Source: a virus
Taxonomy: Duplodnaviria; Heunggongvirae; Uroviricota; Caudoviricetes
Length of the DNA stretch: 41,597 bases
Direction: 5' to 3' (one strand)
IMG/VR virus record: IMGVR_UViG_2703718828_000001
Location: 1-41,597 of that record
Position numbers and translations under genes: made by a program. Of the stretch, positions 5,565-36,030 are shown piece by piece. The notes beneath the pieces are model-generated. The model worked only from the letters and a program-made list of their open reading frames with translations, was not told where the DNA came from and searched no databases. The stretch's first letter is position 1, and every line of letters starts with the position of its first letter.

Positions 5565-5641
<77 letters not shown>

Positions 5642-13074: not shown

Positions 13075-13443
13075 ATGCGCGATATTCAAATGGTTTTAGA
13101 ACGCTGGGGCGGGTGGGCTGCAAGTGATAATTCTGGTGTCGATTATTCACCTATTGCTGCGGGATTCAAAGGGCTCCTACCTCAGGAAAGCAAACCCCGT
13201 CTCTCTTGCACTGATGACGATGCCTTAATCATTGAAGGGTGCCTTGCTCGCTTAAAGAAGAAAAAGCCCTATGAACATTCTTTGCTAGTAGCTCATTATT
13301 TATACGGTATTTCTAAGCGGAAGATAGCTAAAGCGCGCAAGAAAGATGAGAAGATTATTCGCATTGAGATACAACTTGCAGAAGGCTTTATTGATGGATG
13401 TTTGGCAATGTTAGACATCAAACTTGAGATGGACTTATACTAA
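13075..13443 (+). CDS. Late-gene antiterminator Q (QuuD-like)
   Basis: MRDIQMVLERWGGWAA...AAGFKGLLP...CLARLKKKKP resembles QuuD-type Q proteins; GGAGA RBS. Confidence 0.7.
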   Translation: MRDIQMVLERWGGWAASDNSGVDYSPIAAGFKGLLPQESKPRLSCTDDDALIIEGCLARLKKKKPYEHSLLVAHYLYGISKRKIAKARKKDEKIIRIEIQLAEGFIDGCLAMLDIKLEMDLY

Positions 13444-13450
13444 TAATTAT

Positions 13451-13480
13451 GGCGGCCACATACTTTGTGGCCCACGCCAA
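13451..13480. terminator. GC-rich hairpin between convergent genes (bidirectional terminator candidate)
   Basis: Stem ggccaca / tgtggcc (13454-13472) flanked by A/T-rich sequence. Confidence 0.45.
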
Positions 13481-13482
13481 CA

Positions 13483-14259
13483 TTATTTTGCTACAACAAA
13501 AGGAATAATATTATCTGCAGGGATTATGATGCTATTTATTTTTGGTATCAATAATCTGCCATTTTGATAAAAATCAAATACGAATCTAAACTCTTTCTCA
13601 TGCCTGAATTTTTGTGGTTTAAGCATATAGCTATGGCTTAACCAATCAATAACTTGTTTCGGATTAGTTTCAACCTCTTTGTTCTCAATCTGTATATTCC
13701 TTTCAGTGTACTTTATTTGGGTAGCTTCCCACTCCAAATGTAAAGTATCTTTTGTAACCTCTCTGTCGAATAGAGATTCACCATTTTGAATTCTCTTCCC
13801 TATAGTTAGTATCAAAGACTGCGCAATTTCATTAGCTACTTTCTCTAAATCTTCTAATTTGATGTGCCAGTAATCATTATAATCCTTGAATATGGATTTG
13901 CATTCAAGAGGATCTTCAAGAAGTGAAATGCAGAATACAAATCTATTGTATTTACTCAAAGATGCCGTAGCCTTAAATTTATCAATGAATAAATAGTCAG
14001 TTGCTAGCTTACTGTGAGGATATACAATTAATTCCTCGGTGTAAAATTTGTTATCAGAATTAAATGACGATGACATTTGATTGAATAAATGTGCAGGTAA
14101 ATCTATTCCGGATAAGTTAAAAGTCATAAATATATATCCTTCATCCTTGTCTGCAATCTCTTCTTTTTCTGTATCCCTGTATTCCGTCAGACTTCCTATT
14201 TTGATTGTTTTCCTGATTAAAATATTGTCACGTTCATCGCAACTTTTCACTAGATACAT
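13483..14259 (-). CDS. AT-rich orphan cargo gene, 258 aa, no recognisable domain
   Basis: ATG at 14259 with AAGGTG RBS; visibly A/T-rich against GC-rich flanks; antisense to the late operon, between Q and the lysis cassette. Confidence 0.6.
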   Translation of the reverse strand: MYLVKSCDERDNILIRKTIKIGSLTEYRDTEKEEIADKDEGYIFMTFNLSGIDLPAHLFNQMSSSFNSDNKFYTEELIVYPHSKLATDYLFIDKFKATASLSKYNRFVFCISLLEDPLECKSIFKDYNDYWHIKLEDLEKVANEIAQSLILTIGKRIQNGESLFDREVTKDTLHLEWEATQIKYTERNIQIENKEVETNPKQVIDWLSHSYMLKPQKFRHEKEFRFVFDFYQNGRLLIPKINSIIIPADNIIPFVVAK

Positions 14260-26629: not shown

Positions 26630-29050
26630 ATGGCTTCCAAATCACTGGGCACGCTGACGATCGACCTGATTGCCAAAGTGGGCGGTTTTGTCTCCGGCCT
26701 CTCGCAGGCGGAGCGAGCTTCACAAAAATGGCGTAAGCAAGTAAAGGAGGATGCCGCTGCGGCTGCAGCTGCCATGACCGGATTCGCAACAGCAGTCGGG
26801 GCTGCAGCCATCGGAGCCGGAGTGGCGGGGTATAACCTGCTCAAAACCACTTCACGTCAGATTACCGAATCAGACCGCTGGGCAAAGTCACTTAACATGT
26901 CCACGCAGTCCCTGTTAGCCTGGCAATATGCTGCAGAAAAAGCAGGTGTTTCCGGCGATCAGATGGCCGATATTTTTAAAGATGTCGGAGACAAAATCGG
27001 TGATGCCGTTCTTAATAAATCTGGTGAGGCGGTCGGTGCGCTGGACGCTCTGGGATTGTCGGCCAAGAAACTGGCCGGAGAATCTCCCGACAAGCAACTT
27101 CTGGCAATCAGCGACGCACTGGAGAAAGTTAAGTCCAACGCCGAGAAGACTACCATCCTGGAGAGTCTTGGTAATGACCTGTCAAAGATGCTGCCGCTCC
27201 TGGACAATGGCAGTGAAAAGCTGCGTCAGTATATGGATGCCGCGAAGAAGTTTGGTGTGGCACCCGACGACGCAGATATTGAAAAACTGGTCAGAGTTAA
27301 CGCCCTGTTTGAGGATATGGAGACGCAGGTCAACGGCGTCAAAATTGAACTTGCTGCAGGGCTCGCCAGCGTAGATTTGAGTGGGCTCCAGAAGTCTATT
27401 GGAGATATGGGGGATGTATTTAAAGACCCGGCTGTTATTCAGGGTCTGACTGATCTGGTTGGTGGGGTAGTGGACCTGGCCACCTGGCTGGTAAGGGTAG
27501 GGGCCGAGGCCGGAAAGCTGATAGACCAGTACAAAGGCGGGAGTTCGGTCGGCCTGAATGCCTCCATTCCAGAAATTGAACGGCGCATCAAGAACCTGAA
27601 TGCAGATCTCGATGATAAAGGCGTACTGGCGAGTTTCAACAGAATAGGTATGGACGTATCCGGTAAGCAGGCCGAAAGGGCTGAGCTCCAGAGGCGACTG
27701 GCCTTTTTGAAAAACTCCCAATCTACTCTGCCGGAAATAAAACTGCCCGAGCCAGTCAAAACAAACTATACCCTCGGCACCGGGGAAACAAACGGTAAGC
27801 CGCAAAAAAATACCTCTGGCCAGAAGCTTGATTCTGCGTTTAAAAGCGTTGAGCGTAGTTACCTGCGCCAGATTGAACTGATCGACACTACCGGCAAAAA
27901 AACGGCTGTGGTGACCGAGCAGCAAAAACTGCAGTTCGATATTGCTGACGGCAAGTTGCAGTCGCTTAACGAAAAGCAGAAGACGAGACTTGTATCTCTG
28001 GCTCAGGAAGTGGATCGCCTGAACGCTGTCAAAAAAGCCAATGAAGAAAATGCCAGGGTAGCGGCGTTTGTGGCAAATCTGCAGGCACAAAACGAGAATG
28101 CTCGCGCAGATTTGGGCGTGGATGTGCAGGGTGCCGGAATCGGTAATAAGCAGCGTGAGCGGCTCAGGGAACGCCTGAGTATTGAGCGCGATTATCTCGA
28201 TCAGCAGCGGGAGCTGCAAAAGCAGTATCAGTCCGGTGATATAAGCCAGACGGTTTATGACCGGGAAACGCAGGCCCTGAAAGATGCGCAGGCCGAAAGG
28301 ATCGAAGTTCAGGAGGATTACTACAAGAAAGTTGATGCGCTTCAGGCTGACTGGGTAACCGGCGCCCGTGACGGACTTGCCGACTGGGTGGATGATTCCA
28401 CGAACTATGCAATGCAGGCTGCCGACGTCATGAAAACCGCACTCTCAGGGATCAGCAGCAACATTGTCGAGATGCTCAACGGCAATAAAGCGAGCTGGAA
28501 AGACTGGGGTATCAGCGTTCTGAAAATCATAGAACAGGTGATGGTAAATATGATGATCGCGAACGCCGCCAGCTCTATCGGTTCGCTGTTTAGCGGTGCC
28601 GGCTCATCCTCAGCCAGTAGCGGAACAGCAATCCAGAACTATGGTGCAAATCTGCAATTAAACGCCAAAGGCGGCGTTTACTCTTCAGCCGATCTCAGTC
28701 AGTACAGTAACTCTGTCGTCAGTTCACCGACGCTGTTTGCGTTTGCAAAAGGTGCCGGCCTGATGGGAGAGGCGGGTCCTGAAGCCATTATGCCTCTTAC
28801 CCGCGCGTCTGATGGTTCACTCGGTGTCCGCGCCGTGGGAAATAGCGGCGTCACGCCAGGCAGTGGAGGGGCACCACAGGTATATATCACCATTGATGGC
28901 AACGGAAATACGGCCACTCAAGCGACATCTGGCTATGAACAATTCGCGAAAGATGTGGGTTCTTATACAGATAGGCGTTACAGGGATCTAATAATGAGAG
29001 ATTTAGCGCCGGGCGGTGCGATCTGGAACCTTGCAAAAGGAGGCCGCTGA
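26630..29050 (+). CDS. Tail tape measure protein
   Basis: 806 aa, coiled-coil-rich with Gly-rich C-terminal region; follows the G/GT pair. Confidence 0.85.
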   Translation: MASKSLGTLTIDLIAKVGGFVSGLSQAERASQKWRKQVKEDAAAAAAAMTGFATAVGAAAIGAGVAGYNLLKTTSRQITESDRWAKSLNMSTQSLLAWQYAAEKAGVSGDQMADIFKDVGDKIGDAVLNKSGEAVGALDALGLSAKKLAGESPDKQLLAISDALEKVKSNAEKTTILESLGNDLSKMLPLLDNGSEKLRQYMDAAKKFGVAPDDADIEKLVRVNALFEDMETQVNGVKIELAAGLASVDLSGLQKSIGDMGDVFKDPAVIQGLTDLVGGVVDLATWLVRVGAEAGKLIDQYKGGSSVGLNASIPEIERRIKNLNADLDDKGVLASFNRIGMDVSGKQAERAELQRRLAFLKNSQSTLPEIKLPEPVKTNYTLGTGETNGKPQKNTSGQKLDSAFKSVERSYLRQIELIDTTGKKTAVVTEQQKLQFDIADGKLQSLNEKQKTRLVSLAQEVDRLNAVKKANEENARVAAFVANLQAQNENARADLGVDVQGAGIGNKQRERLRERLSIERDYLDQQRELQKQYQSGDISQTVYDRETQALKDAQAERIEVQEDYYKKVDALQADWVTGARDGLADWVDDSTNYAMQAADVMKTALSGISSNIVEMLNGNKASWKDWGISVLKIIEQVMVNMMIANAASSIGSLFSGAGSSSASSGTAIQNYGANLQLNAKGGVYSSADLSQYSNSVVSSPTLFAFAKGAGLMGEAGPEAIMPLTRASDGSLGVRAVGNSGVTPGSGGAPQVYITIDGNGNTATQATSGYEQFAKDVGSYTDRRYRDLIMRDLAPGGAIWNLAKGGR

Positions 29051-30141: not shown

Positions 30142-30852
30142 ATGCGCCAGAAAACCATTGATGCCATCATCGCGCATGCTGCAGCTGAATATCCTCGCGA
30201 GTGCTGCGGTGTGGTGGCACAGAAGAGCAGGGTGGAGCGATATTTCCCCTGCCGTAATCTCGCTACCGAGCCGACTGAACACTTTCACCTGTCGCCGGAA
30301 GATTACGCAACTGCCGAAGACTGGGGGGCGGTAACGGCGATCGTACACAGCCACCCAGATGCAACCACCCAACCGAGCGAAACTGACAAAGCCCAGTGCG
30401 ACCTGAACGGACTGCCCTGGCATATCGTCAGCTGGCCGGAGGGTGACCTGCGCACCATTATGCCCAGAGGAGAAATTCCCCTCATTGAGCGGCCATTCGT
30501 GCTGGGCGTTTACGACTGCTGGGGGCTGGTAATGAGCTACTTCCGGCAGACCCACGGCATCGAGTTGAAAGATTACCGGGTCGATTATCCCTGGTGGGAA
30601 AACGACTATCCGGACAACTTCTATCAGGACTGCTGGTATGAATGCGGCTTCCGTGAATTTGACGGCCCGCCGCAGCCTGGTGATATGGTGATCATGCAGG
30701 TTCAGGCTGACAAGTGGAACCATGCCGGCATCCTGCTGGAGGGTAATATGCTTCTGCACCATCTGTACGGGCATCTGAGCCAACGCGTGCCCTATGGCGG
30801 CTACTGGCAGGAAAGAACTATGAAAGTTTTGAGATATAAAACCCTGTGCTAA
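30142..30852 (+). CDS. Tail assembly protein K (MPN/JAB plus NlpC/P60-like)
   Basis: ECCG...HSHP motifs at the N-terminus; 236 aa. Confidence 0.8.
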   Translation: MRQKTIDAIIAHAAAEYPRECCGVVAQKSRVERYFPCRNLATEPTEHFHLSPEDYATAEDWGAVTAIVHSHPDATTQPSETDKAQCDLNGLPWHIVSWPEGDLRTIMPRGEIPLIERPFVLGVYDCWGLVMSYFRQTHGIELKDYRVDYPWWENDYPDNFYQDCWYECGFREFDGPPQPGDMVIMQVQADKWNHAGILLEGNMLLHHLYGHLSQRVPYGGYWQERTMKVLRYKTLC

Positions 30853-30881
30853 TCTTCCTGCAATTCACAAAGGGAGAGGAT

Positions 30882-31280
30882 ATGAAAAGAATATTCTTGG
30901 GTTTAGTTATCGTCATATTAACTGGATGCTCCTCAAAACCTTATGAGGCAACGGGCATTATTTATGATTCATCACTTTTATATGACAAGACTGGTGCTAC
31001 CAAAGTAAGGGTACACCGTGTCCAGCAATTATCTGGATCGGGGTTGGGTGAGAACTGTCCATTAGTTTTGAAAGTTGATGAAAAAGAAGTGGCAGGGTTA
31101 CAGCAAAATCAGTATGTAGATGTTTACTTACCAAAGGGCGAGCATAAGATTTCAGTAAGATTCAAATGCGCGCTAACTGAATGGCGAAAATCTTTAAGTA
31201 TTATCGCTGACGGCCATTATCAAGAATACCAAACAGAGACCGGGGCTGCAGGTCAATATCGGATGTGGCAAGTTAAGTAA
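30882..31280 (+). CDS. Lipoprotein cargo gene inserted between K and I
   Basis: MKRIFLGLVIVILTGCSS lipobox signal; lower GC than flanking tail genes; own terminator downstream. Confidence 0.6.
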   Translation: MKRIFLGLVIVILTGCSSKPYEATGIIYDSSLLYDKTGATKVRVHRVQQLSGSGLGENCPLVLKVDEKEVAGLQQNQYVDVYLPKGEHKISVRFKCALTEWRKSLSIIADGHYQEYQTETGAAGQYRMWQVK

Positions 31281-31298
31281 AACGTTCGTCAAAATCGA

Positions 31299-31320
31299 GG
31301 TCGCTTAGGCGGCCTTTTTT
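31299..31320 (+). terminator. Rho-independent terminator after the lipoprotein gene
   Basis: ggtcgc-ttag-gcggcc (one G-U pair) followed by T7. Confidence 0.45.
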
Positions 31321-31332
31321 TATGGGGTAAGA

Positions 31333-31938
31333 ATGAGCGAAAACATGGTTAAAATCGAACTTGGCGGCATCTTAGGTAAGACATTTGGTAAAACCCATTA
31401 TCGATTAATAAGTACAGTTCATGAGGCTACAAGAGCTTTAGCGGCAACGATCACAGGGTTTGAAAAATTTATGATTACTAGTGATCGCCGTGGTCTTACT
31501 TATGCAGTTTTCAAAGGAAAGAAAAACATTGGCGAAGATGACTTGGGCTATCCGGTTACAGAAGATGTAATTCGTATCGTGCCCGTAATTATTGGAAGTA
31601 AAAAAGCTGGCGTGCTGCAAACCGTTTTGGGCGCGGTACTTGTTGTTGTAGGTGCAGTTGTAGGCGTAATGACGTCGTGGACTGGGGTTGGTGGCGTAAT
31701 AGGTAGCGGGATGGTTACCGCTGGTATCGGATTAATGGCCGGCGGTGTGATCCAGATGCTTTCTCCTCAGCCAGCAGGGCTGGCCAGTAAACAGGATGCA
31801 GATAACCGGGCCTCTTATGCGTTCGGTGGCGTAACAAATACCGCTGCGCAGGGGTATCCGGTGCCGCTTCTTTACGGTCGCCGGCGCATCGGCGGCGCGA
31901 TTATTTCAGCCGGCATTTATGTCCAAGATCAGCAGTAG
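31333..31938 (+). CDS. Tail assembly protein I
   Basis: 201 aa with Gly-rich hydrophobic C-terminal half (GAVVGVMTSWTGVGGVIGSGMVTAGIGLMAGG). Confidence 0.8.
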   Translation: MSENMVKIELGGILGKTFGKTHYRLISTVHEATRALAATITGFEKFMITSDRRGLTYAVFKGKKNIGEDDLGYPVTEDVIRIVPVIIGSKKAGVLQTVLGAVLVVVGAVVGVMTSWTGVGGVIGSGMVTAGIGLMAGGVIQMLSPQPAGLASKQDADNRASYAFGGVTNTAAQGYPVPLLYGRRRIGGAIISAGIYVQDQQ

Positions 31939-31957
31939 ACAGAAACGGGAGAGTGTT

Positions 31958-32203
31958 ATGAGTCTAGAAGAACGTGTAGGAGCGCTGGAATCTGCTATCG
32001 CCAGCTTGGCTTTGCAGCAGAGTAATAATTGGGATTTGAGTGATGTGGCGAGGAGTTTTGCGTCGGAATCCATTATAGATGCTTGTTGCGCGAGAGGGAG
32101 AATAAAAGCGGCCCAAGAACAGACCGCATATATGCAAATATTAGAAAATGGGATATCAGTGAAAATCGATAATGTTATTTCTGTCCGCTTGTTAGCGTTT
32201 TAA
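31958..32203 (+). CDS. Hypothetical small protein (cargo between I and J)
   Basis: 81 aa from ATG at 31958 with GGGAGAG RBS; 3' end overlaps the convergent gene by 29 bp. Confidence 0.45.
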   Translation: MSLEERVGALESAIASLALQQSNNWDLSDVARSFASESIIDACCARGRIKAAQEQTAYMQILENGISVKIDNVISVRLLAF

Positions 32204-32426
32204 CCATAACGCCAATTTGCGCAATTGCTAATTGAGCTGCAGCCTGCCCTTCATTTTGTGCATAATAGCGATCAAGGTTAGCAAGGAGTTTTTCAGCGAA
32301 CCCAGGCATTTCATCATTCAAAGTTCTTGCCAAAACTGCATACGCTCCTTGCATCGCATACACCGCTGTGGTGCTATCTGGCAGAGGCATCTCATTTGCA
32401 ATCGATTCTTCAAACTTATAATTCAT
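32175..32426 (-). CDS. Hypothetical small protein, convergent partner
   Basis: 83 aa from ATG at 32426 with AAGGA RBS. Confidence 0.45.
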   Translation of the reverse strand: MNYKFEESIANEMPLPDSTTAVYAMQGAYAVLARTLNDEMPGFAEKLLANLDRYYAQNEGQAAAQLAIAQIGVMVKTLTSGQK

Positions 32427-32554
32427 ATCTATTCCTTGACAGAGGTAAACAGCCATCCCTCTGCATAGTTGTTCGCCAGTGTCCCACCACTGACGGGCTG
32501 AATGCCTACCTTAGCCAGGGTTAAAACGAAACGACATCCTGATATTCAAACAGT

Positions 32555-32579
32555 AGCCACCTCCGGGTGGCTTTTTTTA
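32555..32579 (+). terminator. Rho-independent terminator immediately upstream of J
   Basis: agccacc-tccg-ggtggct followed by T7. Confidence 0.55.
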
Positions 32580-32589
32580 TGGGCGCAAT

Positions 32590-35500
32590 ATGGTAACTGC
32601 AACCGCAATTAAAGGCCGCAAAGGTGGTGGCTCTAAATCCCGCACGCCTACCGAACAGCCTGACGATCTCCAGTCTGTTGCAAAGGCAAAAATATTAATC
32701 GCGCTGGGGGAGGGGGAGTTCTCAGGACAGTTAACCGGCAAGGATATCTACCTGGACGGTACCGCGATTGAGAATGCTGACGGCTCTCAGAACTTCAGCG
32801 GCGTCACCTGGGAGTTTCGTCCCGGCACGCAGGCGCAGAAATACATCCAGGGCATACCCGGCACCGAAAACGAAATTAGCGTGGGTACCGAAGTATCAAG
32901 CGCCACAGCCTGGACCCGAACGTTTACCAATACCCAGCTTTCTGCTGTTCGTCTGCGCCTGAAGTGGCCATCGCTGTTCCAGCAGGAAGACGATGGCGAT
33001 CTGGTCGGGTATTCGATTAAATATGCGATTGATCTGCAGACCGACGGCGGCACCTGGCAGACGGTGCTGAATACCAGCGTAACCGGTAAGACCACATCCG
33101 GTTATGAACGCAGCCACCGTATCGATCTTCCGCAGGCCGGCAGCACATGGACGCTTCGTCTGCGTAAAATCACCGCTGATGCGAACAGCGCGAAGATCGG
33201 CGATACGATGACGCTGCAGAGCTTTACCGAGGTGATTGACGCCAAGCTGCGCTACCCAAACACCGCGCTGCTGTACATCGAATTCGACTCAAGCCAGTTC
33301 AATGGCTCTATTCCTCAGATTTCATGCGAACCGCGCGGACGCGTTATTCGCGTGCCGGATACCTACGATCCAGAAACCCGAACCTACAGCGGGACCTGGA
33401 CGGGGACGTTTAAGTGGGCATGGACGGATAATCCGGCGTGGATTTTTTACGACCTGGTGGTGACCGACCGCTTCGGGCTGGGTGATCGCCTGACGGCGGC
33501 GAATATCGACAAATGGACGCTATACCAGGTGGCGCAGTACTGCGATCAGATGGTGCCGGACGGTAAAGGCGGAAGCGGTACCGAACCCCGCTATACCTGC
33601 AACGTCTATGTTCAGGAACGGAACGATGCCTACACCGTTCTGCGTGATTTTGCTGCCATATTCCGGGGTATGACCTACTGGGGCGGTGACCAGATTGTTG
33701 CGCTGGCGGATATGCCCAGGGATGTTGATTACAGTTATACCCGCGCCAACGTGATTGATGGCCGCTTTACCTACGCCAGCAGTACCACGAAAACGCGCTA
33801 TACCACAGCGCTGGTTTCCTGGTCCGATCCGTCTAACGCCTATGCTGATGCAATGGAGCCGGTGTTTGAGCAGGCACTGGTGGCACGTTACGGATATAAC
33901 CAGCTGGAAATGACGGCTATTGGGTGTACCCGCCAGTCAGAGGCAAACCGCAAAGGACGCTGGGGCATCCTGACCAACAACAAGGACCGCATCGTTTCTT
34001 TCGATGTCGGCCTGGACGGTAACATTCCACAGCCCGGTTATATTATCGCCGTGGCAGACGAAATGCTGTCTGGAAAGGTTATGGGCGGGCGCATCAGCGC
34101 TGTTAACGGCAGGGTAATCACGCTGGACCGCAAACCCGACGCAGTGGCTGGCGGCCGACTTATTCTGAACCTGCCTTCTGGCGCTTCTCAAAGTCGTACT
34201 ATCCAGTCGGTAAACGGCCAGGCCGTGACCGTCACGACGGCTTACAGCGAAACGCCACAGGCTGAGGCTGTCTGGGTAGTTGAGTCCGATGAACTCTATG
34301 CGCAGCAGTACCGTGTTGTGAGCGTCACGGATAACAACGATGGCACATTCTCTATCGCGGGTGCGTGGCACGATCCGGATAAATATGCCCGCATCGATAC
34401 TGGCGCCATCATTGACCAGCGCCCGGTGAGCGTCATTCCTCCGGGCAACCAGTCGCCGCCTGCTAACATCGTCATCAGCTCGTTCTCCGTGGTGCAGCAG
34501 AATATCAGCGTCGAAACCATGCGCGTAAGCTGGGACCAGGCGCAGAACGCTATCGCCTATGAAGCGCAATGGCGCCGCAACGACGGGAACTGGGTTAACG
34601 TCCCGCGCAGCTCAACCACGTCCTTCGATGTGCCGGGGATATATTCGGGCCGCTATCTGGTACGTGTGCGGGCTATCAACGCCGCTGAGATTTCCTCCGG
34701 GTGGGGCTATTCGGAAGAGAAAACTCTGACCGGGAAGGTGGGCAACCCGCCGAAACCGGTGGGCTTCACCGCCTCTGAAAACGTTGTATTTGGTATCGAG
34801 CTGAACTGGGGGTTCCCGGCGAATACGGACGACACGCTGAAAACCGAAATCCAGTACAGCCTGACCGGCAGCGATGATGATGCGCTGCTTCTGAGCGATG
34901 TCCCCTATCCGCAGCGCAAGTATCAGCAGATGGGCCTGAAGGCGGGGCAAATTTTCTGGTACCGGGCGCAGCTGGTGGACAGGACAGGCAATGAGTCGGG
35001 TTACACAGACTGGGTACGTGGACAGGCCAGCATCGATGTATCGGATATCACCGATGTTATCCTGGAAGATATTAAAGAATCGGACACGTTCAAGGAACTG
35101 ATCGAAAGCGCCGTAGACGGCAACGAGAAAATTGCTGGCATGGTCGACGACATCAGACAGAACGCTGACGATCTGGAGCAACAGGCGCTGGCCATCAAGG
35201 AAAACGCCGATGGGCTCGCCCAGGCCGAGGTGAAGATTGACGAAATCTCTGTCTCAATGGACGGCATGACGGGAGGCGTTAAAAACTCCTCTATTGCGGT
35301 TATCCAGAACAGCCTGGCGCAGGTAACCAGCCGTCGATCCCAGACAGCCACCAACGCCGGGAACAGCGCCAGCATCGACCGTATCGATACCACCATTGCA
35401 GATACCAGCCATTCGGTTGCCCGTGCGCTGGTGACGCTTGATGCTTCTGCGGGTGGTAACGTCTCAAACGCGACCGATCTCACCGAAACCCTTGCTGATT

Positions 35501-36030
35501 TCACGCAGGCCTCGGCCACGAAAATCAATTCCCTGACGGTTACGGTAAACGGCCAGACCGCGGCTATTAACGAGACCGTACAGGCGGTGGCTGATGTAAA
35601 CGGCAACCTGAGCGCGATGTATAACATCAAGGTGGCGGTGGACTCCAATGGACGCCAGTACGCCGCCGGGATGGGGATCGGCGTTGAGAATACACCATCC
35701 GGCATGCAGTCACAGGTGCTGTTTGTTGCTGACCGTTTCGCGGTGATGTCTCAGGCTGGCGGGGCTGTGACGCTGCCATTCGTGATCCAGAACGGGCAGA
35801 CGTTCATCCGGGATACGTTCATTCAGGACGGAACCATCAGCAATGCCAAGATCGGCAACTTTATTCAGTCGAACAATTACGTTGCAGGCTCGGCGGGATG
35901 GAAGCTGGATAAAGGCGGGAATTTCGAAATCAACGGCGTGGTCGGTGGCGGCAGAATGCTGATATCCAGCACCCTGATCCGCATTTATGACAGCAATAAC
36001 GTGTTACGCGTCAGAATGGGGTTATGGTAA
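32590..36030 (+). CDS. Host specificity / central tail fibre protein J
   Basis: 1146 aa; lambda J-like size and position. Confidence 0.85.
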   Translation: MVTATAIKGRKGGGSKSRTPTEQPDDLQSVAKAKILIALGEGEFSGQLTGKDIYLDGTAIENADGSQNFSGVTWEFRPGTQAQKYIQGIPGTENEISVGTEVSSATAWTRTFTNTQLSAVRLRLKWPSLFQQEDDGDLVGYSIKYAIDLQTDGGTWQTVLNTSVTGKTTSGYERSHRIDLPQAGSTWTLRLRKITADANSAKIGDTMTLQSFTEVIDAKLRYPNTALLYIEFDSSQFNGSIPQISCEPRGRVIRVPDTYDPETRTYSGTWTGTFKWAWTDNPAWIFYDLVVTDRFGLGDRLTAANIDKWTLYQVAQYCDQMVPDGKGGSGTEPRYTCNVYVQERNDAYTVLRDFAAIFRGMTYWGGDQIVALADMPRDVDYSYTRANVIDGRFTYASSTTKTRYTTALVSWSDPSNAYADAMEPVFEQALVARYGYNQLEMTAIGCTRQSEANRKGRWGILTNNKDRIVSFDVGLDGNIPQPGYIIAVADEMLSGKVMGGRISAVNGRVITLDRKPDAVAGGRLILNLPSGASQSRTIQSVNGQAVTVTTAYSETPQAEAVWVVESDELYAQQYRVVSVTDNNDGTFSIAGAWHDPDKYARIDTGAIIDQRPVSVIPPGNQSPPANIVISSFSVVQQNISVETMRVSWDQAQNAIAYEAQWRRNDGNWVNVPRSSTTSFDVPGIYSGRYLVRVRAINAAEISSGWGYSEEKTLTGKVGNPPKPVGFTASENVVFGIELNWGFPANTDDTLKTEIQYSLTGSDDDALLLSDVPYPQRKYQQMGLKAGQIFWYRAQLVDRTGNESGYTDWVRGQASIDVSDITDVILEDIKESDTFKELIESAVDGNEKIAGMVDDIRQNADDLEQQALAIKENADGLAQAEVKIDEISVSMDGMTGGVKNSSIAVIQNSLAQVTSRRSQTATNAGNSASIDRIDTTIADTSHSVARALVTLDASAGGNVSNATDLTETLADFTQASATKINSLTVTVNGQTAAINETVQAVADVNGNLSAMYNIKVAVDSNGRQYAAGMGIGVENTPSGMQSQVLFVADRFAVMSQAGGAVTLPFVIQNGQTFIRDTFIQDGTISNAKIGNFIQSNNYVAGSAGWKLDKGGNFEINGVVGGGRMLISSTLIRIYDSNNVLRVRMGLW

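Follow-up and report, generated by a model that had tools for sequence, protein, structure and literature searches.

The window, by which we mean the whole stretch of 41,597 nucleotides analysed here, carries a complete HK97/lambda-like prophage whose late operon lies on the plus strand in the order terminase, portal, protease, capsid, tape measure (26630-29050), M, L, K, I and J. The gpI-like tail assembly gene (31333-31938, plus strand; phrog_32, E 4.8e-73) and the gpJ-like central tail fibre gene (32590-36030, plus strand) form the left and right backbone flanks of a cassette that begins beyond I. Wedged between them are two small genes that an earlier note on this DNA had picked out and that we were able to confirm: a forward gene, here called F (31958-32203, plus strand, 81 aa), co-directional with the late operon, and a reverse-strand cargo gene, here called R (32426-32175, minus strand, 83 aa), whose convergent 3' ends overlap by 29 bp (32175-32203). 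Each gene has its own ribosome binding site (RBS) as had been noted, GGGAGAG for F and AAGGAA for R, and the lower GC content remarked on in the same note also holds (0.42-0.46 over 32000-32600 vs 0.55-0.60 in K, L and J). The F start codon lies 19 nt past the gpI-like stop (31938), and because this gap leaves no room for a promoter F should be readable only from the late transcript. DNA similarity to the gpI genes of HK97 and HK022 covers 31740-31937 of the window and similarity to their J genes reaches 32900. The N-terminal half of the gpI-like gene (31333-31600) has a GC content of ~0.40 and the C-terminal half ~0.55, a step which together with the start of the HK97/HK022 similarity at 31740 suggests a mosaic joint inside I.

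Two intrinsic terminators lie in and beside the pair. The plus-strand terminator (32555-32579; stem 32555-32572, T run to 32579) ends 10 nt before the gpJ-like ATG (32590) and forms the outer edge of the module. The earlier note was right that a strong terminator stands just before J, although it is not peculiar to the insert, as HK544 and N15 keep it. The R-transcript terminator (32098-32127, minus strand; stem 32127-32108, then a T run), which a terminator scan reads as GCGGTCTGTTCTTGGGCCGC followed by TTTTATTCTC, is embedded in the F codons for AAQEQTA, and its hairpin is kept in L014-L018 and L008 (L numbers designate the loci compared with the window). The positions of these elements indicate that two terminators insulate R, its own within F and the plus-strand one beyond its upstream region.

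In order to place the cassette we compared the junction with those of related phages, and it proved to be extra DNA relative to these. At the empty site of HK544 the I stop is followed by 19 nt, the same terminator and J, and in N15, HK225, HK75, mEp390 and others the I-J interval holds the terminator only, with 39/39 nt identical between N15 and the window across the terminator and the start of J. The earlier note had taken the pair for inserted cargo and not tail machinery, which is borne out by the synteny comparison it proposed for the I-J junction (occupied in HK97 and HK022, empty in HK544) and by the presence of the same pair at the M-L junction of another phage; it had also named conserved tail accessory proteins as the finding that would speak against this, and the close relatives lack the pair. 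The M-L copy (L150) has an R protein 88% identical to that of the window and the same 29-nt overlap. Further copies of the F-R pair lie between the tape measure and distal tail genes (L008-13) and near HNH/terminase (L014-17), the 29-nt overlap being kept in L008-L017, L029, L034 and L150. On this comparison F and R move together between late-operon junctions. The window core is 69-76% identical to the copies after the tape measure gene, and a core block of 474 bp running from terminator to terminator (32104-32577), with the R terminator as its left edge, is 90% identical to L014-16.

When the I-J interval was searched as DNA, the only stretch with homology was 32421-32593, which comprises the terminator and the non-coding DNA upstream of R. 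The matches fall at the same I-J junction in HK022 and HK97, where they adjoin gene 23 ('reverse moron'), at the M-L junction in ES18, Oslo and SPN3UB, and between Rz and the terminase region in mEp213, mEp043 and HK633. Each matching phage has a small reverse-strand gene immediately downstream of the stretch, and the small proteins of these phages are unrelated to F and R of the window. At the I-J and M-L junctions the reverse gene is met by a converging small forward gene, and the Rz-terminase copies have no annotated forward ORF that overlaps it. Megablast of the window cassette against complete E. coli genomes returned partial matches to the leader end only, in 2 genomes, from which the host is not E. 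coli. The convergent overlap, described earlier as unusual, is in fact recurrent, with genes 22/23 of HK97 and HK022 and genes 24/25 of ES18 already annotated as moron and reverse moron, and the layout is ordinary for HK97-like phages.

In the sense reportedly given to the term by Juhala et al. in 2000, a moron is extra DNA of deviant base composition that has its own terminator and its own promoter for prophage expression. Extra DNA, a GC difference and an own terminator are all found at the I-J cassette, and from these comparisons the pair is a mobile accessory cassette (moron plus reverse moron) of an HK97-like prophage with an Enterobacter-type host. The window has a second moron at the K-I junction (30882-31316), a gene for a 132-aa lipoprotein (phrog_890, E 3.3e-12, lipobox signal) with a GC content of 0.39-0.43, its own plus-strand terminator (31297-31316) and zero DNA matches in the phage collection; at this junction HK022 has a different moron (gene 20) and HK97 a terminator only. 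A tRNA-Arg gene (anticodon TCT) is found at 5565-5641 on the minus strand, in the early-gene arm of the prophage.

The R family is small, with homologues in 14 clusters at 62-100% identity from Enterobacter, Kluyvera and other Enterobacteriaceae and only 15 clusters among 1.8e9 representative proteins. An in-frame ATG upstream at 32456 would give a 93-aa form with the 10-residue extension MAVYLCQGID; the start of the family is 32426, all members (14/14) being annotated from MNYKFEE. Between the window and the copy in another phage R shows no indels and a dN of 0.057 against a dS of 1.395 (dN/dS ~0.04). It matches phrog_25136 (E 2.5e-5), and its AF2 model (pLDDT 84.7) has three long helices, so that R is predicted to be a soluble helical protein and not a small hydrophobic peptide. 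Searches of the model against BFVD and the PDB gave chance-level helical-bundle matches only (best E 0.5 and 1.3), the predicted fold being a generic three-helix bundle with no informative structural neighbour.

For F the first protein search returned three truncated relatives only. A full-length homologue, P0051 (81 aa, 48% identity), is collinear with 67% nucleotide identity and 0 indels, and a profile search assembled a family of 89 clusters, every one annotated 'hypothetical'. The comparison with the copy in another phage gave a dN of 0.41 and a dS of 0.985 (dN/dS ~0.4). The sister F protein of locus L007 matches phrog_9873 at E 1e-50, and the window F matches the same family weakly (E 0.012). 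The AF2 model of F is of low confidence (pLDDT 51), with an N-terminal helix and three C-terminal strands. The body of F is variable, and its C-terminal 30 residues track the R family even in distant members. On the substitution rates both F and R are genes under purifying selection and not a chance pair of ORFs. Of the profile searches called for in the earlier note, that against PHROGs matched both proteins to families without an assigned function only; Pfam, NCBIfam and PADLOC gave no match for either. The two proteins are new and uncharacterised.

The start of F is conserved in a different manner. A left 'handle' (31946-31990, plus strand) comprises the F RBS and the first 11 codons (MSLEERVGALE); the consensus for the F-start family is MTLEQRVEALEK, the window version reads MSLEERVGALES, and the handle has an 80% DNA match to the F starts of L007, L008 and L010-12. 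The MTLEQRVEALEK start is common to F ORFs beside many different cargo families. Across 32 distinct starts the peptide is kept through synonymous changes (Arg6 as CGA, CGT or CGC; Leu10 as CTG, TTA, CTT or TTG), which shows selection on the peptide. F starts have a good RBS throughout, typically with a GCC-GAAA-GGC mini-hairpin and a GGGAGA RBS upstream. The mini-hairpin precedes the F RBS in most other loci (e.g. L008:3371-3395), with the consensus AAGCCGAAAGGCGGGAGACAGTT-ATG; the window lacks it, F there abutting the I stop codon. In L014-L018 F is short and is without the conserved N-terminus.

The most conserved element of the cassette, missed in the first reading of the DNA, is the ~130-nt stretch between R and the terminator; leader and terminator together form a conserved unit of ~135 nt. 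On the R strand the consensus module begins with the reverse complement of the plus-strand terminator, the imperfect palindrome TACTG-N9-CAGG, GTGTTAC, 17 nt and a TAnnnT element (TAAGGT), continues with UCAGCC, hairpin 1 (CGUCAGUG-GUGGGA-CACUGGCG) and a variable linker, and ends with hairpin 2 (CAGAGG-GAUGGCUGAUUA-CCUCUG) followed by the Shine-Dalgarno (SD) sequence and start codon of the cargo. In the window the structured 5' leader of R occupies 32423-32502 (minus strand; covariance-model match of 86.2 bits), with hairpin 1 at 32474-32495 (loop GUGGGA) and hairpin 2 at 32440-32463, the latter containing SD-like GGAGG/AGAGG and the ATG of an upstream ORF (uORF, 32456-32454). A putative promoter/operator region (32503-32555, minus strand), which we infer from an alignment of 83 non-redundant leader copies, includes the TAnnnT element (TAAGGT, 32513-32508), conserved in the 83 copies with constant spacing to the leader, and the palindrome (32555-32538). 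A sigma-70 consensus scan of the minus strand upstream of R found no promoter.

The palindrome could be an operator. We considered a LexA box here and rejected it on the copy alignment, in which the spacing is CTG-N9-CAG and not the N10 of the LexA consensus; sigma-54 and CRP sites near the leader were set aside by eye as their spacing does not fit. On the plus strand a promoter-like sequence (TTTGCA-16-TATAAT, 32395-32422, 10/12 matches) lies within R codons 2-11 and points toward the terminator. A plus-strand sRNA of ~150 nt that would start there, antisense to the R leader, was likewise discarded since neither L017 nor L008 has kept the promoter, and the site is probably there by chance.

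Comparison among leader copies lends moderate support to an RNA structure. Across 48 diverse leaders 99% of hairpin 1 is paired, and every change in it is compatible with wobble pairing on the R strand only; for hairpin 2 the paired share is 84%, and in 4 of its pairs both partners have changed. All but 6/500 shuffles scored lower in covariation, and slid controls were 29-50% paired; the set was picked by the hairpin-1 motif and its sequences are related, hairpin 1 and the long-range pairing being nearly invariant. RNAalifold pairs the invariant UCAGCC with an invariant GGCUGA in the hairpin 2 loop, which implies a pseudoknot or an alternative fold. In the window UCAGCC (32501-32496) can pair with GGCUG (32454-32450); a minimum free energy (MFE) fold is part of the evidence for the structured leader there. 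The covariance model recovers 97 copies in 94 sources, divergent ones included, such as that of phage Perceval, which lies between holin-region and endolysin genes and has AUGGGG/CCCCAU as stem 2. The AUG in hairpin 2 opens a five-codon uORF (MADYL*) in 50 copies and is fused in frame to the cargo in 24 copies including that of the window, both counts among the matches listed; in the window fusion the usual TGA reads TGT, as it does in L014-L016. The uORF could couple or gate translation. Three GGA motifs, in the GUGGGA loop of hairpin 1, in AGGGAUGG of hairpin 2 and in the SD AAGGAA, give the leader what we take, with low confidence, to be a likeness to CsrA-type sites.

The leader appears to have gone unremarked in annotation. 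An Rfam covariance scan of the whole window gave no match for it, only the tRNA passing its gathering score, and the best matches within 30800-32700 were at chance level (e.g. isrD, 19.5 bits vs a gathering score of 37). The leader sequence was not found in the literature searched, and it is unannotated in 225/225 of the E. coli RefSeq genomes carrying it. Exact hairpin-1 copies among species representatives are confined to Citrobacter, Enterobacter, Kluyvera and Atlantibacter.

In order to ask how widely the leader is used we searched viral contigs with a motif of 21 specified bases. Among the matches listed the motif occurs in more than 119 contigs, and in ~130/136 instances an ORF starts ~70-85 nt past it. 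The products of these ORFs are 70 distinct proteins, which BLAST groups into at least 21 clusters; the clusters correspond to separate PHROG families without an assigned function apart from one DUF1883 and one aspartyl-protease-like family. The idea of a single superfamily of helical cargos was rejected, as hhalign between clusters gave three weak links only (60-75% probability), and PADLOC returned no match for ten other cargo families. A convergent ORF in the F position accompanies 122/132 of the leader copies with a cargo ORF and is absent from the other 10/132, again among the matches listed. Modules without F include those with the DUF1883 cargo (87 aa; cluster 6: L023, L027, L067, L077, L096) and with a 169-aa cargo (cluster 11: L086, L119). 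Two leader modules with different cargo occur at different junctions of one phage in L024, L027 and L068, L024 for example carrying a 73-aa HK022-gp23-like protein and a 154-aa aspartyl-protease-like protein. The module is found at no fewer than ten (>=10) kinds of late-operon junction, and among the matches listed only 4/124 scored copies stand before J. The plus-strand terminator accompanies the leader at these other junctions, with compensatory changes in its stem.

What is conserved, by this comparison, is the flanks, or chassis, and not the cargo. The variable F body and R are bracketed by two conserved handles, which would allow cargo exchange by recombination, and the diversity of cargo, with at least 21 clusters in separate PHROG families, fits an arms race. 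It is possible, if rather doubtful, that the terminator, the palindrome, the weak promoter, the two-hairpin leader with its invariant UCAGCC and GGCUGA pairing and its uORF of SD and AUG, and the conserved F start together make up an undescribed portable expression chassis, a plug-in slot for reverse cargo that is gated by a shared factor. Such a chassis would represent a new cis-regulatory RNA/promoter family of enterobacterial HK97-like and lambdoid phages. Its slot would serve for the exchange of no fewer than 21 unrelated families of small proteins, at ten or more junctions of the late operon, and candidates for the shared gating factor would be the late antisense transcript or a regulator that binds GGA, CsrA for example. 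The leader-and-handle combination appears to be previously undescribed. The shared leader, which would define a compact conserved regulatory RNA, may matter more than the F-R pair itself, as one motif of 22-28 nt is a simple sequence handle by which Enterobacteriaceae genomes could be searched for dozens of phage proteins that are expressed in the lysogen and still uncharacterised, together with their late partners.

For the F-R pair itself, the reading we favour, at a little under an even chance and by analogy, is that it forms a non-contiguous operon in which R is a prophage effector and F its late neutralising partner. In the lysogen R would be transcribed leftward from its own weak promoter, with TAAGGT as the -10-like element and a start near 32501-32503, and its translation would be set by the structured leader. 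Upon induction Q-modified late transcription would run rightward through F, antisense across R and the leader, and through the terminator into J, so that F would be made and R damped by transcriptional interference and antisense pairing, amounting to a switch from R to F. R would most likely be expressed from the prophage as an effector against competing phages, or serve another function of benefit to the lysogen, and F would most likely be made late to neutralise it and protect the phage's own assembly. These roles are proposed because of the analogy with Tab/anti-Tab and Tai/Ati, two defence and counter-defence pairs compared with the window below. Several observations count against them. 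Cassettes whose R families differ have the F N-terminus in common, and a protein that bound only its cognate R would not be expected to show this; neither protein resembles Tab, anti-Tab, TaiEcA or AtiEcA or has a PADLOC match, and the R fold is generic; and no sigma-70 promoter was found for R, with 10/132 modules having no F.

The main rival to the effector and antidote reading, which we regard as unlikely but deserving of weight, is that R is a stand-alone lysogenic-conversion moron (acting for example in superinfection exclusion or on host physiology) and F an unrelated late or structural/assembly protein, the two being linked by compaction and shared recombination flanks. The 12 conserved N-terminal residues of F, the same ahead of many R families, speak for this, as do the modules that have no F and the short F of L014-L018 without the conserved N-terminus. 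Against it, the C-terminal 30 residues of F vary in step with the R family, distant members included, three different junctions preserve the 29-nt overlap, and phages without R at the same site are also without F.

The toxin-antitoxin option raised in the earlier note fared worse. An addiction module, in which R or F would be toxic and neutralised by the partner protein or by antisense RNA, would agree with the converging and overlapping 3' ends and with a late/F transcript that is fully antisense to R and its leader. It is nonetheless improbable, given that no toxin or antitoxin domain was matched in Pfam, NCBIfam or PADLOC, that the genes are not co-transcribed, that R, at 83 aa, is predicted to be soluble and helical and not a short hydrophobic peptide, that L017 and L008 do not share the sole plus-strand promoter-like site within R (32395-32422), and that the cargo includes unrelated folds (DUF1883, aspartyl-protease-like). 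Just as improbable in our view is that F is not a functional gene and its ORF a by-product of constraints from the terminator and 3' end of R and from a conserved flank used in recombination. The embedded terminator and the overlap do constrain part of F, the first protein search yielded truncated relatives, and confidence in the structural model is low, but the 81-codon collinear homologue (67% nucleotide identity, no indels, dN/dS ~0.4), the synonymous variation beneath a conserved N-terminal peptide with a good RBS throughout, and the 89 clusters of the profile search all argue for a real gene. A role for F and R as conserved accessory or assembly proteins of the tail in this lineage has in its favour their location inside the tail cluster between I and J and is highly improbable, since they are missing from close relatives with intact I and J, R lies opposite to the late operon strand, the same cassette occurs beside lysis and terminase genes, and among the matches listed only 4/124 leader copies with a scorable downstream late gene stand before J.

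Returning to R as the proposed prophage effector and F as its proposed late partner, the systems with which the pair may be compared fall into those that share its DNA and those that share its architecture only. The HK97-type moron and reverse-moron layout has reportedly been known since the work of Juhala et al. in 2000. HK97 gp22 (moron) and gp23 (reverse moron) and HK022 gp22 and gp23 ('srb') lie at the same I-J junction (GenBank AF069529, AF069308) and have, like the window, a forward small ORF, a convergent reverse small ORF and a terminator before J. Their leader upstream of the reverse gene and their terminator are homologous to 32421-32593 of the window at 76-82% identity. In contrast to this the proteins are not detectably related to the window F or R (17-25% identity), and hhalign places HK022 gp23 and HK97 gp23 in cargo clusters other than that of the window R. 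In the literature searched no function was reported for gp22 or gp23 of either phage, and neither the phrase 'reverse moron' nor HK022 srb was found. ES18 (gp24/gp25), Oslo and SPN3UB have the same leader and terminator (83-85% identity) and convergent small genes annotated 'possible moron', differing from the window in lying at M-L instead of I-J and in carrying unrelated cargo proteins.

Type I and type II toxin-antitoxin loci resemble the window in having two small adjacent genes with overlapping opposite-sense transcripts. The pair differs from type II systems in being convergent and not co-transcribed and in having no toxin or antitoxin domain in Pfam, NCBIfam or PADLOC, and from type I systems in having neither a small hydrophobic toxin nor a conserved promoter for an antisense RNA.

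Two experimentally characterised pairs share the architecture. In Pseudomonas phage JBD26 the tab gene (83 aa, minus strand) has its own promoter inside the late operon, and atab (83 aa, plus strand), a gene of the late operon, converges on it with a 47-bp overlap (Patel et al. 2024, PMC10884400); the coordinates we compared were 13377-13628 (plus) and 13582-13833 (minus). Tab is made from the prophage and blocks tail assembly of the invader through the tape measure protein, and its antidote anti-Tab is made late and binds Tab (PMC10884400). Like this pair, the window has a small gene set in reverse within the late operon, its 3' end meeting that of a forward late gene. It differs from Tab/anti-Tab in position, the window copy lying at I-J and the others at ten or more junctions. 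Neither R nor F aligned with Tab (YP_010299225) or anti-Tab by BLASTP, and hhalign probabilities were at most 0.5%. A resemblance to Tab seen by eye in one cargo family (MDIEVLKRSL...) was dropped, as BLASTP did not support it. In the enterobacterial lambdoid phage phi80 taiEcA runs against the Q-driven late operon that contains it, beside the late-expressed atiEcA, an arrangement termed a 'non-contiguous operon' (He et al. 2024, PMC11364771), with Tai (204 aa) the immune protein, Ati a small counter-defence protein and Q expression lowering Tai (PMC11364771). The window is similar in having a reverse gene set against a plus-strand late array with a late neighbour; tai and ati overlap at their 5' ends (divergent) and the window genes at their 3' ends. 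The hhalign probabilities of R and F against TaiEcA and AtiEcA were 0.1% and 0.04%, and the enterobacterial leader is absent from both JBD26 and phi80.

The suggestion in the earlier note of a two-component defence or immunity pair under antisense control is thus upheld as regards layout, which matches Tab/anti-Tab and Tai/Ati, and not as regards sequence or profile similarity, of which there is none. By architecture only, the window pair may work as Tab/anti-Tab and Tai/Ati do while being a member of neither family. What is added here to the known moron layout is its tie to the non-contiguous-operon paradigm of phage defence and the recognition of a portable leader and handle chassis. Should R and F prove to be effector and late antidote, they would be a new protein pair among the few non-contiguous-operon defence and counter-defence modules, and gp22/gp23 of HK97, unexplained since 2000, would belong to that class too.
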